From positions 80,528 through 144,527 of the forward strand of contig CALREW010000001.1 of assembly GCA_943356415.1 (NCBI GenBank): a stretch of 64,000 nt of DNA, written 5' to 3'. The stretch is from Candidatus Nomurabacteria bacterium. Lineage in GTDB: Bacteria > Patescibacteriota > Minisyncoccia > Phycocordibacterales > SBAW01. The translations under genes were made by a program, and so were the position numbers. Positions within the stretch are counted from its first letter, which is position 1. Each line of letters opens with the position of its first letter. Of this stretch, positions 33,147 to 36,140 are shown piece by piece. Below the pieces are notes generated by a model. The model searched no databases, was not told the origin of the DNA, and worked only from the letters and a program-made list of their open reading frames with translations.

Positions 33147-36140
33147 ATGGCTATCTACGATCATAAGAGAATAGAGAAGAAGTGGCAGGAGAAGTGGCTG
33201 CGCGAAAACGCGTTTCAGGCTGACGATGCGTCCACAAAAGAGAAGAAGTACGTGCTCGACATGTACCCCTATCCGTCCGGCTCAGGTCTCCATGTGGGGC
33301 ACGTAGAGGGCTACACGGCCACTGACATCTATAGTCGGTACCTACGCATGAAAGGTTTCGAAGTGCTCCATCCGATGGGATGGGATGCGTTCGGCCTTCC
33401 TGCAGAAAATTACGCCATCAAGACTAACGTTCCTCCCGCAAAAACGACTGAGGAGGCGATACAGACCTTTACTTCACAAATAAACAGCCTAGGTCTCTCC
33501 TACGACTGGTCGCGTGAAATTGGTACGCACCGTCCGGATTACTACAAATGGACGCAGTGGCTTTTCTTGCTGCTCTATAAAAACGGTCTTGCGTACAAAC
33601 AGAAAGCAAAGGTTAATTGGTGCCCCAAAGACCAAACGGTTCTTGCGAACGAGCAGGTTGTCGATGGTAACTGCGAGCGGTGCGGAACGGGTGTAATACA
33701 AAAAGATCTTGAGCAGTGGTTTTTCCGTATTACTAAATTTGCCGAGGAATTACTCGCCGACCTCGAGCATGTTAATTGGCCTGAATCAACTAAGGCAGCG
33801 CAACGCAACTGGATAGGAAAAAGCGAAGGCGCGGAGATTGATTTTGTTATCGCTGGCACAGACGAGAAGATACGCGTTTTTACCACCCGCCCCGATACGC
33901 TCTATGGAGCAACATACCTGGTGCTTGCTCCTGAGCATCCACGTATTGATGTGCTTTCTGCACATATCACAAACCTTGATGCCGTTGCTGCGTATCGTGC
34001 ACAAACTGCGACAAAAACTGAGCTCGAGCGCACCGCGCTTGCCAAAGAAAAGACTGGCGTGCAGCTTGAAGGTATTGCCGCTATAAACCCCGCCACAAAA
34101 GAACAAATTCCGGTTTTTATAGCTGACTACGTTCTTTCTCAATACGGTACAGGCGCCATTATGGCGGTGCCTGCGCATGACGAGCGTGATGCTGACTTTG
34201 CCAAAGCGTTTAACTTGCCAGTGAAGCGTGTTGTCGACGAGAAGAAGTATTTTATATTCGACTTCGACGGTGTGCTCGGCGACACCTTTGAAGCAGCGCT
34301 TGCAGCTCATGTAGCAATGGGACACTCGCCGGATCTTGAAGCAGCGCGCGAAGCGGTATTGAAGTATGCGCACAACAAACCTCGCCACACGCGCGACGCA
34401 AACCCGTCTCCTGAAGTACTTGCTGAAGAGCGAGCGTGGACTGCGCGGTTTGGTACCGCAATGTTACAGAGTGACTGGAAACTTTTCGACGAGTTTATTC
34501 GCGAAGTTGAGAAGATACCCAACACACAGATTGCAATTGTTTCCAGCGGCTCGGAGCTCTATGTAAAACCTGCGTCGGAGAAAACACGCCTTAACCCAAC
34601 GCACGTTATGGCATTTGAGACGAGTCATTCAAAAGAAGAGAAAATCGAAACGATTTGCCGTGACTGGGGCATAGATCCAAAGCAAGCGTATTACTTTACC
34701 GATTCAAAAGCCGACGTATACGAACTTAAGGGTATGTTTCCTGAGGGGAAACTCATTGGCTGTGCCTGGGGCTTTGTTGGGAAAGAAGCACTCGAGGAAG
34801 TCCTTCCGCGTTCGTCAGTACTTGAGAACTATGCGGACATACATACGCTTTTCATGGGTCTCCATACTGGCGATGGATTGCTTATCAATTCGGGCGATTT
34901 TACTGGCGCATCTTCGGCTGCAGCAAAACGCACCATTACTGAATCGGTCGGCGGCGTTATGAAGACGACTTATCGTCTACGCGATTGGCTTATTTCCCGC
35001 CAGCGCTATTGGGGCGCCCCGATACCGATGGTGTATGACCCGGAAGGCAATTTGCATCCGGTACCGGAGGAACACTTGCCCTGGGCTTTGCCTACTGATG
35101 TTGAGTTCAAGCCAACAGGGGAATCCCCAATGGCAAAATCGAAAGAGCTACGCGAACGGGTAGAAAAACTATTCGGTCCTGGATGGACTCCAGACGTGGA
35201 CACGATGGATACCTTCGTGTGTTCGTCATGGTACTTCTTCCGTTTTGCGGACCCACACAACGCGGAAGTTTTCGCTGATAAAGAAAAAATGAAGCGCTGG
35301 CTGCCGGTTGACCTGTATGTCGGCGGGGCAGAACATACCGTTCTCCACCTTCTCTACGCCAGATTTTTTACCAAAGCACTGCAATCCCTAGGCTTCATAG
35401 ATTTCGTCGAACCCTTCACCATGTTGAGGCATCCAGGAACCATCCTCGCTGAAGATGGGCGAAAGATGAGCAAGTCACTCGGTAATGTGGTTAATCCGAC
35501 CGATGTCGTTGATGAGTACGGTGCCGACTCGTTGCGCTTGTACGAAATGTTTATGGGCCCGCTCGATGTCGCAAAGCCGTGGAATACCCGCAACATACTC
35601 GGCGTGCGTCGATTCCTTGAAAAGATAATTGCGCTTGCGTCGCGCGTTGCAGATGCAGAAGCGGATGAACCGACCGAATCGTTGATGCATCAAAGCATCG
35701 AGTCGGTAACCGCTGATATTGAGGCGCTGAAGTTCAATACGGCAATAAGCCAGTTGATGATTTTCGCCAATAAGCTTGGCGAATACAAAGAGGTGCCGCG
35801 GCACGCCTTCGAGACGCTTCTGGTGTTACTTTCGCCATTAGCCCCTCATCTCACACATGAACTCTGGGAGCAAACCGGCCACGCAGACGATATCAGGCTC
35901 TCCTCATGGCCGGTGGCAGACCAAACAAAGCTCTCAAAGGCGTCAGTGACTGTTGGAGTGCAGGTAAATGGAAAAGTGCGCGGTTCAGTCACGCTTTCTG
36001 CAGAAGCCACGCAAGAGGAAGCGCTTGCCGCAGCACGCGCACACGAGGGTGTTTCAAAATGGCTCGCCCTGGGCAGGGAAGTGAAGGCGGTCTACGTACC
36101 GGGCCGGATTATCAGCTTTGTGGTCGAATCGGCAGTATAG
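33147..36140 (+). CDS. leuS: Leucyl-tRNA synthetase with an inserted HAD-hydrolase-like domain
   Basis: HVGH motif, CP1 editing domain ([11 protein letters not shown]...AVPAHDERD), KMSKS and the C-terminal domain are all present. An extra ~190 aa segment ([10 protein letters not shown]...IVSSGS...FTDSKADV) sits after the editing domain. The start is taken at MAIYDHK (ATG at 33147). Confidence 0.9.
   Translation: [997 protein letters not shown]

Follow-up and report, generated by a model that had tools for sequence, protein, structure and literature searches.

A predicted HAD phosphatase module nested in the CP1 editing domain of leucyl-tRNA synthetase of a Candidatus Nomurabacteria bacterium

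Leucyl-tRNA synthetase (LeuRS) is a standard example of an enzyme in which one domain, CP1, is nested within the catalytic fold. All domains of the solved LeuRS of Thermus thermophilus (1H3N, 2BTE) and Escherichia coli (4AQ7) are collinear with those of the protein described here, but a loop of ca. 15 residues occupies the position where the latter has 210 residues, and the LeuRS structures in the PDB have no HAD counterpart. CP1 as the host of another complete enzyme would be a doubly nested architecture, as against its listing in a 2026 survey of domain insertions, in which the LeuRS editing domain is an insert-only module and never a host (PMC13114784). Full-text literature searches returned no description of a HAD domain nested in LeuRS, in line with the preliminary statement that it is not known as a described LeuRS architecture, although it is not unique to this genome, as relatives also carry nested HAD modules.

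Free-standing HAD_2 proteins of Patescibacteria (e.g. P0033, a 'HAD hydrolase-like protein' of Candidatus Kaiserbacteria) were 47–53% identical over 97–100% of the insert and share its length and the motifs LIFDFDGV.GDT, VSSGS, HSKEEK, YFTD..ADV.EL and G..WG, but are encoded by separate uncharacterised genes, often directly upstream of leuS. Other Patescibacteria LeuRS, such as the 945-aa 'leucine--tRNA ligase' P0221 of Candidatus Adlerbacteria and L019, are alike in host and in the sites that accept insertions, but sister proteins differ in which enzyme is inserted, where it is inserted and how many modules there are, the present case being a single HAD at site B. Solved HAD enzymes, i.e. the phosphoglycolate-phosphatase-like 2HSZ and 2HI0, CbbY (4UAR), SerB (1F5S) and the BT2127 pyrophosphatase (3QU4), have in common with the insert the core, the helical cap and the Asp-x-Asp. 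The entry NF040702 ('isoleucine--tRNA ligase, N-acetyltransferase domain-containing'), compared by its name, joins a class I synthetase to an extra catalytic domain, with another host and another domain. Inteins are likewise autonomous units, in frame within an essential gene and patchy among orthologues, but they are Hint/endonuclease elements with junction residues, whereas the present insert is a conserved metabolic enzyme which is presumably kept in the mature protein.

The leuS gene and the position of the insert

The window, a 64,000-nucleotide stretch of a Candidatus Nomurabacteria contig, contains leuS as a single uninterrupted ORF of 997 amino acids plus stop on the forward strand (nt 33147–36140), in a frame that is open from nt 33111 with ATG at nt 33147; all features given below are on this strand. 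Against the bacterial LeuRS family TIGR00396 of NCBIfam the translation scored 956.2 bits (cut-off 548.4), with the match split into two stretches, and in the alignment to T. thermophilus LeuRS (1H3N) query residues 4–365 and 576–770 corresponded to chain residues 4–364 and 380–581, respectively, ca. 210 residues standing in place of the short Thermus loop. The protein is 193 aa longer than its closest insert-less relatives (804 aa), close to the previously estimated excess of about 190 aa over compact forms, and the family score, the alignment and the motifs in translation agree with the earlier statement that the canonical LeuRS blocks are all present and collinear. The AlphaFold2 (AF2) model of the full protein had a mean pLDDT of 93.2 and a pTM of 0.80, and Foldseek matched it to the E. 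coli and Thermus LeuRS structures with target-length normalised TM scores of 0.78–0.84.

The N-terminal part (aa 1–365; nt 33147–34241), aligned with T. thermophilus residues 4–364, takes in the N-terminal half of the catalytic Rossmann fold and ca. three quarters of CP1 from its start, with Pfam matches to PF00133 at aa 12–224 and to PF13603 at aa 220–367. Read in the translation were the HIGH-type class I signature HVGH (aa 49–52; nt 33291–33302), the threonine-rich CP1 editing motif FTTRPDT (aa 245–251; nt 33879–33899), and the editing-site block GTG...AHDERD (aa 333–348; nt 34143–34190), which pairs residue by residue with T. thermophilus LeuRS and includes the conserved Asp of the AHD motif, which we take to have a role in LeuRS editing. 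The CP1 editing pocket appears intact from the sequence. The C-terminal part (aa 578–997; nt 34878–36137) aligned with T. thermophilus residues 380–877, to the end of the Thermus protein, and comprises the last ca. 40 CP1 residues, the other half of the catalytic domain, the domain that binds the anticodon and the C-terminal domain, with KMSKS at aa 773–777 (nt 35463–35477) and PF08264 at aa 845–955.

Between these parts lies the nested HAD module of 205 aa (aa 366–570; nt 34242–34856), the boundaries of which were set by comparison with the free-standing homologues of ca. 205 aa that it matches over their full length. It is followed by a 7-aa linker, GLHTGDG (aa 571–577; nt 34857–34877), leading back into CP1. 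The HAD translation assigned earlier to nt 34239–34836, which ends in ENYA, was correct, with the true extent being slightly longer. The previous placement of the insert after CP1 does not hold: the insert is placed by profile and alignment inside the editing domain, i.e. at a second level of nesting, below that of CP1 in the Rossmann fold, because the PF13603 match ahead of the insert stopped at position 144 of the 185 in the profile, crystal structures of isolated CP1, e.g. the 192-aa 4K47, aligned only via their own residues 3–137, and the Thermus LeuRS residues from 380 onwards resumed after the insert.

The GC content over the insert (0.45–0.56) was like that of the flanks, no flanking direct repeats or target duplications were found around it, and promoter- and terminator-like sites at the insert were not above chance. 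The Pfam search of the module gave neither a transposase nor a recombinase. An intein was rejected, as in the preliminary description: the only Pfam hits in aa 366–577 were HAD families, with no Hint or endonuclease domain, the insert begins with Lys366 and not with a Cys, Ser or Thr nucleophile, and the C-terminal junction is without HN-Cys/Ser/Thr.

The locus order YchF-DUF5671-leuS-sigma70_r4-DUF8128/YceG is common to HAD-bearing and NUDIX-bearing LeuRS, and the window leuS is at the orthologous syntenic locus and is not a divergent paralogue.

Fold, motifs and family of the HAD module

The insert alone matched PF13419 (HAD_2) with 36.1 bits (E-value 8.9e-9), and 31.6 bits were obtained within the full LeuRS, both above the gathering cut-off of 23.8. 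The AF2 pLDDT of the module was 96.8 when predicted alone and 95–98 within LeuRS, with strands and helices in the expected order and cap helices at about aa 381–455 (17–91 of the module). The module is on this model confidently a Rossmannoid core with a C1 cap between motifs I and II; in HADs, a C1-type cap goes with small-molecule substrates. Foldseek matched it with a probability of 1.00 to many HAD phosphatases, the phosphoglycolate-phosphatase-like proteins, CbbY, SerB and the BT2127 pyrophosphatase having TM scores of 0.6–0.69 and identities of 12–20%. The in-frame HAD insertion proposed earlier was in this way substantiated by profile search and predicted structure, the two checks then suggested for the fold.

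Motif I, FDFDG (nt 34257–34271; nucleophile D372, acid/base D374), motif II, IVSSGS (nt 34536–34553; S466), and motif IV (nt 34689–34727; D519-SKA-D523, with FTDSKAD within) were invariant in the alignment and in 71 free-standing relatives. Motif III, SHSKEEK (nt 34623–34643; K496), corresponds to the family consensus HHSKEEK, with Ser replacing the first His; its lysine, likewise invariant in both sets, was absent from the earlier list of motifs. In all, 50 of the 54 positions conserved in at least 90% of the 71 free-standing relatives were retained, and three of the four changes were conservative. As one or both of the His residues before the motif III lysine are gone in the clade of the window (both in P0122), the substrate pocket of these modules may have drifted.

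The FDFDG, IVSSGS and FTDSKAD signatures reported earlier as HAD-IA are present, but the assignment to the HAD-IA sub-family was not sustained, as TIGR01549 (HAD-IA variant 1) scored 11.8 bits against a cut-off of 23.3. Other candidate families also fell short: PpaX pyrophosphatase with 17.7 against 218 (E-value 0.0019), the beta-phosphoglucomutase family PGMB-YQAB with 13.1 against 153, HAD-IB with 21.5 against 45, and the phosphoglycolate phosphatase equivalog far under its NCBIfam cut-off. By sequence similarity the module is assigned to a Patescibacteria-specific sub-family, and it reached no curated NCBIfam equivalog cut-off. Because of this, and of the low identities to the solved HADs, their substrate specificity is not transferable.

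Distribution of nested modules in Patescibacteria

The nesting of whole small hydrolases in large essential enzymes of the ultra-small CPR/Patescibacteria is a wider pattern of which the window is one case and of which the full-text literature searches likewise returned no description. Dozens of related species have a HAD, NUDIX, Ham1 or alpha/beta-hydrolase module nested in LeuRS or in other essential proteins, and the HAD was found at four LeuRS sites or, not nested, as a separate gene immediately preceding leuS. The survey of related genomes proposed in the preliminary description recovered the same HAD-in-LeuRS architecture in P0122 (74% identical), P0123 (62%) and further Patescibacteria. 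The locus of P0123, the one of these two that was examined, is on a 648-kb contig with the synteny YchF-DUF5671-leuS-sigma70_r4-DUF8128 as in the window. The closest LeuRS relatives without the insert, P0124 and P0125, had a body identity of 71%.

Among relatives of the module with at least 44% identity, the HAD was nested in LeuRS in 39 of 79 GTDB species loci, and was directly upstream in 10 more; the free-standing gene lay 8–210 bp from leuS in 10 of 12 such loci and ca. 1 kb in the other two. At least six host families besides LeuRS carry it: Der/EngA, UvrB, PNPase, CTP synthase, and aminoacyl-tRNA synthetases (aaRSs) of the ValRS-type class I and the class II Asp/Lys/Asn-type. Fusions without a host protein were also found, i.e. 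Ham1-NUDIX-alpha/beta-hydrolase-HAD (P0258) and HAD with NUDIX (P0264, P0368).

LeuRS site A, just upstream of FTTRPDT, was either 16–31 aa or 192–230 aa long among relatives, where Pfam coordinates placed a Ham1, Ser-hydrolase or HAD module. Site B, the CP1 position of the HAD in the window, was occupied by NUDIX in ca. 60 of the 120 closest LeuRS. Relatives had as many as five nested modules, and the largest LeuRS ORF was of 1,735 aa (L019).

Proposed function and origin of the fused polypeptide

We consider it probable, though well short of certain, that the leuS product is a bifunctional polypeptide, in which a normal LeuRS is joined to an independent small-molecule phosphatase captured from an upstream operon partner. 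A complete C1-capped HAD phosphatase, apparently competent in catalysis, is nested almost without linkers in a length-variable CP1 loop of an ordinary LeuRS, which retains intact HIGH and KMSKS signatures, CP1 editing motifs and domains for tRNA binding. The second unit is predicted to be a Mg-dependent phosphomonoesterase with a small-molecule substrate, most probably derived from a nucleotide; the repeated fusion of this HAD to NUDIX and Ham1 points to a "house-cleaning" or salvage nucleotidase downstream of these pyrophosphatases. As for its origin, in sister lineages the HAD gene directly precedes leuS in the same orientation, and the whole ORF minus its Met would have been captured in the lineage of the window. 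The benefit would most likely be that, in a tiny genome, the phosphatase is of necessity co-expressed, and kept at a stable dosage, with an essential protein which is made constitutively.

The occurrence of the module, with the same boundaries, in non-aaRS hosts and in host-free fusions suggests that its function is independent of the host, and nesting would probably give LeuRS no new editing chemistry. The earlier suggestion of a new editing activity is weakened because the same HAD and the NUDIX, Ham1 and alpha/beta-hydrolase modules recur at the four LeuRS sites and also in other essential hosts. The nearest solved HAD structures are only 12–20% identical to the module, and no curated equivalog threshold was reached, which counts against the reading as a nucleotide-directed phosphatase. 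The association with LeuRS, with 39 of 79 loci nested and 10 more upstream at ≥44% identity, is very strong for mere co-expression, and a real coupling between the two units is possible.

Such a coupling, which we rate as a distinctly less probable reading than independence, would make the HAD, NUDIX, Ham1 and esterase modules on-enzyme accessory or antidote activities. Their substrate would be a small molecule which the synthetase produces or which targets it: pyrophosphate or AMP, the removal of which would drive aminoacylation, by-products of the Ap4A type, mis-activated adenylates, or antibiotics mimicking aminoacyl-adenylates. The strong bias towards aaRS hosts, with four LeuRS sites and synthetases of both classes, the conserved operon adjacency of HAD and leuS, the weak PpaX match far under its cut-off, and the structural matches to the BT2127 pyrophosphatase are consistent with it, as is the known detoxification of adenylate-mimic antibiotics by standalone hydrolases, homologues of which have been cloned from Parcubacteria as well (PMC7157772). 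Against it, the same HAD resides in Der, UvrB, PNPase and CTP synthase and in synthetase-free hydrolase fusions, and P0124 and P0125 manage without it. The aspartyl-phosphate chemistry also argues against coupling, since HAD enzymes, which act via such an intermediate, are not known to cleave acyl-adenylates or aminoacyl esters.

It is less likely still that the HAD and similar modules are mobile at the domain level, spreading among loops of essential genes by an unknown dedicated insertion or homing-like mechanism, so that the location in leuS would reflect mobility and not a benefit to the host protein. The edges of the HAD, (K/T)KYLIFDFDG ... DIHxxF, are constant within 1–2 residues in every host and site, at least four LeuRS sites are occupied, as are six or more further host families, and on the neighbour-joining tree of LeuRS bodies, which is without support values, the states none, NUDIX and HAD are interleaved even between close sister pairs. 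The module tree, inferred by the same method and likewise without support values, grouped the HADs by context into one site-A clade, two site-B clades and a few site-C clades, which opposes mobility and would fit a handful of old insertions followed by vertical descent. Mobility is also opposed by the lack of Hint, endonuclease, transposase and recombinase domains, splicing residues, flanking repeats and target duplications in and around the insert, and by the strong conservation of the catalytic residues, which is to be expected of a working enzyme.

A degenerate pseudo-enzyme, having lost its activity and adding only bulk or a binding surface to CP1, is very improbable. The replacement of the first His of HHSKEEK by Ser, the loss of both His in P0122, and the lower identity of the insert (62%) than of the LeuRS body (77%) between the window and P0122 would agree with decay, but the degenerate structural insertion considered in the preliminary description is unlikely because the 50 of 54 conserved positions are kept, along with all four catalytic motifs, mostly conservative changes and a confidently predicted fold.

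A chimeric join of a neighbouring HAD gene into leuS, conceivable in principle given the gene order of sister genomes, or a hidden frameshift, has a negligible probability, when the identical 997-aa protein (P0121) was found on 20 contigs (16 of them 50–200 kb) among the Logan assemblies, which were built from public sequencing runs, orthologues from other projects at 74%, 62% and ca. 55% identity keep the junctions in frame, the HAD is in the middle of leuS and not terminal, and the free-gene position upstream is empty in the window, with DUF5671 directly preceding leuS.

As a wider reading, which we put forward only tentatively, Patescibacteria would systematically nest whole hydrolase genes in frame in loops at the surface of large, essential enzymes that use nucleotides. 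The modules would either cooperate with their host, e.g. by the breakdown, at the synthetase, of non-canonical nucleotides, by-products of the Ap4A type or inhibitors that mimic adenylates, or spread by a dedicated mechanism of domain insertion. If general, the pattern would show how very small bacterial genomes pack and co-express housekeeping hydrolases. Protein engineering may draw on the insertion points of LeuRS, Der, PyrG, PNPase and UvrB, which nature has validated as permissive, and the fusions act as a "Rosetta stone" tying an uncharacterised HAD family to the NUDIX/Ham1 enzymes of nucleotide house-cleaning. In current annotation, the proteins with nested modules are labelled simply as 'leucine--tRNA ligase'.

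LeuRS of the window and position of the insert

The leuS gene at 33111/33147..36140 (+) forms a single uninterrupted frame of 997 aa counted from the ATG, and by sequence comparison it is beyond doubt a bacterial leucyl-tRNA synthetase (LeuRS). The product scored 956 bits against NCBIfam TIGR00396 (cut-off 548), and matched the T. thermophilus LeuRS in the PDB with an E-value of 7e-213 (phmmer). Both matches were split: Thermus residues 4–364 aligned with query residues 4–365, and Thermus residues 380–581 with query residues 576–770, and therefore about 210 query residues stand in place of about 15 in the Thermus enzyme. 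The CP1 motifs, HVGH and KMSKS were all intact in the translation. AlphaFold2 modelled the full-length protein with a mean pLDDT of 93.2 (95–98 for the insert and junctions) and a pTM of 0.80, and the model resembled E. coli and Thermus LeuRS with TM-scores of 0.78–0.84, normalised to target length.

The HAD-like insert noted in the preliminary description at 34239–34836 was confirmed by these split alignments and by its match to Pfam HAD_2 (36.1 bits, cut-off 23.8, E-value 8.9e-9). When bounded by comparison with free-standing homologues, the module covers 34242–34856 (+), aa 366–570, thus ending ca. 20 nt further downstream, and is directly followed by a 7-residue linker, GLHTGDG, on the same strand. 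In alignment, the insert comprises an entire free-standing protein from residue 2–3 to the C-terminus. Its initial placement after CP1 was incorrect: the match to the Pfam model of the LeuRS editing domain, PF13603, stopped before the insert at profile position 144 of 185, and only residues 3–137 were aligned in isolated CP1 crystal constructs, e.g. 4K47 (192 aa). The insert is therefore located inside CP1, about three quarters through the domain.

The GC content of the insert was similar to that of its flanks. A 19-nt imperfect direct repeat (34288–34306 and 34336–34354, 84% identity, 48 nt apart) in the HAD cap region encodes two Glu-Ala-Ala-rich helix starts, and probably reflects chance or composition. 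As previously proposed, the segment is a domain insertion and not an intein; an intein or mobile element was ruled out by the lack of Hint, endonuclease and transposase domains, junction residues, and repeats flanking the insert. A separate transcription unit for HAD was rejected, since hits to internal promoters and terminators did not exceed shuffle expectation.

Nested modules in LeuRS and in other hosts

Two insertion hot spots, sites A and B, were identified in CP1 among the 120 closest LeuRS proteins. Site B, which is occupied in the window, lies between AHDERD and LLINSGDF and is 20–63 aa long without an insert; the inserts were NUDIX (ca. 180–187 aa, about 60 proteins), HAD (235 aa), or HAD+NUDIX (ca. 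405 aa). Site A lies in the hairpin preceding FTTRPDT (16–31 aa without an insert), which accepted a Ham1/ITPase or PF06821 Ser-hydrolase module of 192–230 aa. The insertion seen in the window recurred in related LeuRS, and NUDIX, Ham1 and Ser-hydrolase modules and other sites were found as well.

Scanning of the GTDB species representatives with the HAD profile returned 79 loci. Each was assigned to a context by tblastn searches using HAD and the N and C parts of LeuRS as queries, and the ORFs were examined for continuity. HAD was present at site B in 13 of the 79 loci, at site C (directly following the CxxC knuckle and preceding DTMDTF/DTMPNW) in 20, at site A in four, and at site D, ahead of the anticodon-binding domain, in two. 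The comparative data weaken the earlier view of a unique architecture. In 10 loci, HAD was encoded separately, in the same orientation as leuS and upstream of it, mostly at a distance of 8–210 bp, and two more such loci were recovered by exact look-up.

The nested HAD-LeuRS ORFs were continuous and reached 1,735 aa. In four loci (L019, L057, L021 and L013), LeuRS ORFs of 1,539–1,735 aa contained four or five nested hydrolase modules in one frame (NUDIX two to three times, Ham1 or alpha/beta-hydrolase, and HAD), occupying three or four sites. The L019 gene (2422–7626 in Candidatus Taylorbacteria MAG PLXZ01000004.1) includes three NUDIX stretches, alpha/beta-hydrolase and HAD, while L057 combines two NUDIX with Ham1 and HAD, and L021 NUDIX with Ser-hydrolase and HAD. 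Two further ORFs, L055:3559–6000 and L064:4282–7197, correspond to the C-terminal half alone of a class I synthetase resembling LeuRS, in which HAD (and NUDIX) precedes the anticodon-binding domain; an N-terminal half was not detected up to 6 kb away, and these could be split LeuRS or fragmented assemblies. In an Absconditabacterales MAG (L060), the ORF with HAD at site A was interrupted by stop codons under table 11, probably because UGA is decoded as glycine in this lineage (code 25).

Other proteins also harboured more distant members of the HAD family, with module boundaries unchanged: Der/EngA GTPase (sometimes with two HADs), UvrB, PNPase, CTP synthase (between the synthase and GATase domains), ValRS-type class I synthetases, and a class II Asp/Lys/Asn-type aaRS in which an HD domain was also present. 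Apart from the ValRS type, these hosts were found in loci L052, L059/L063/L068/L072, L074 and L077, and as proteins P0241, P0273, P0280, P0300 and P0301. Host-free fusions included Ham1-NUDIX-alpha/beta-hydrolase-HAD (P0258, 828 aa), HAD+NUDIX (P0264, P0368), and HAD+alpha/beta-hydrolase (P0275), and the four modules appear to be a functionally linked set. An exhaustive search of 1.84 billion representatives with the HAD profile gave 106 matches at E-value ≤1e-30, about 37 of them at least 500 aa long.

The module and LeuRS-body trees, computed by neighbour-joining without support values, are indicative only. HAD modules grouped by context, with one clade for the free genes that precede leuS, one site-A clade, a few site-C clades, and two site-B clades, in which the window grouped with loci L001 and L006–L010; the pattern is consistent with a small number of insertions that were then inherited vertically. 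In the LeuRS-body tree, the states "none", "NUDIX" and "HAD" were interleaved, even in close sister pairs, and the window together with P0122, a homologue with the same insert, was sister to the insert-less P0150, P0124 and P0125. On this indicative tree, the module at site B must often have been lost or replaced.

Although domain insertion is a known kind of event in aaRSs, with CP1 itself as an example and the NCBIfam-listed IleRS with a GNAT domain likewise carrying an added domain, HAD-in-LeuRS nesting in CPR is without earlier description in the literature searched. Our full-text searches of that literature returned neither HAD or NUDIX modules in LeuRS nor nested hydrolases in CPR. The LeuRS editing domain was classed as an insert-only module, without host behaviour, in a recent survey (PMC13114784).

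Predicted activity of the HAD module

All HAD motifs first quoted for the insert were present in the translation, and a motif III lysine was identified in addition. Modelled alone with 34 relatives (AlphaFold2, pLDDT 96.8), the insert had an intact HAD fold, and Foldseek matched it to C1-capped HAD phosphatases, namely phosphoglycolate-phosphatase-like proteins, CbbY, SerB and BT2127 pyrophosphatase (TM 0.6–0.69, identity just 12–20%). Fold and chemistry class are clear from sequence and model. Assignment of a specific HAD function was rejected, as no transferable substrate was offered by these generic matches, by the NCBIfam sub-family and equivalog models (no threshold reached, equivalogs all far under their cut-offs), or by the PDB phmmer search (nothing significant, E-value 0.24 matches only). 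CP1 handles the CCA end of tRNA; tRNA 3′-end repair or macromolecular-substrate hydrolysis by HAD was set aside on the basis of the C1-type cap and the occurrence of the module in non-tRNA enzymes.

The leuS product is rather probably bifunctional, combining a normal LeuRS with an independent, predicted C1-capped HAD phosphomonoesterase in one polypeptide. The HAD substrate would be a small molecule, because C1-type caps are associated with small substrates. Its recurrent fusions to NUDIX and Ham1 pyrophosphatases suggest that HAD acts on nucleotides, as a "house-cleaning" or salvage nucleotidase. The HAD gene probably entered leuS from the adjoining upstream position, and nesting probably ensures that it is expressed together with an essential protein in a minimal genome.

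A true coupling of HAD to aaRS chemistry, by PPi/AMP removal, Ap4A/adenylate hydrolysis, or inhibitor detoxification, would agree with the strong bias to aaRS hosts and the operon adjacency of HAD and leuS, but the presence of this module in unrelated hosts speaks for a role independent of LeuRS, and we regard coupling as unlikely. The earlier suggestion of a new editing activity is weakened by the comparative data. It is more doubtful still that HAD is mobile at the level of the domain.

The nearest relatives of the insert were free-standing proteins of ca. 205 aa from Kaiserbacteria, Nomurabacteria and other Parcubacteria, with 47–53% identity across 97–100% of the insert. Among 71 such relatives, 54 positions were at least 90% conserved, and 50 of these are retained in the window; one of the four substitutions is His to Ser in the HHSKEEK motif, and the remaining three are conservative. 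This degree of retention points to a functional enzyme rather than a relic, and makes a pseudo-enzyme highly improbable; the proposal of a degenerate insertion likewise lost ground in the comparison.

An artefact is scarcely conceivable, and misassembly was ruled out, by the identical 997-aa protein (P0121) on 20 contigs, 16 of them 50–200 kb, in Logan assemblies of public sequencing runs, and by conserved orthologues. Two of these share the window architecture, P0122 (74% identity over the full length, with 77% for the LeuRS body and 62% for the insert) and P0123 (62% identity), the latter on a 648-kb contig with the same neighbourhood of YchF, DUF5671, leuS, a sigma70_r4 protein and DUF8128.

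Other genes of the window

Within the 64-kb window, no free-standing HAD, NUDIX, Ham1 or Ser-hydrolase paralogue was found, and the large ORFs other than leuS had ordinary architectures. A 677-aa ORF (57061–59094, +) had no Pfam match at E-value ≤1e-4. The alanyl-tRNA synthetase (47455–49344, +) is only 629 aa long, consists of tRNA-synt_2c and tRNA_SAD, and appears to be without the usual C-terminal extension. A large serine recombinase of 540 aa (4658–6280, −), with Resolvase, Recombinase and Zn-ribbon domains, could be the sign of an integrated element. At 23559–28377 (−), an AcrB/RND-type transporter (1,047 aa) adjoins an HlyD-like membrane-fusion protein (556 aa), an efflux pair unexpected for a CPR-type genome.
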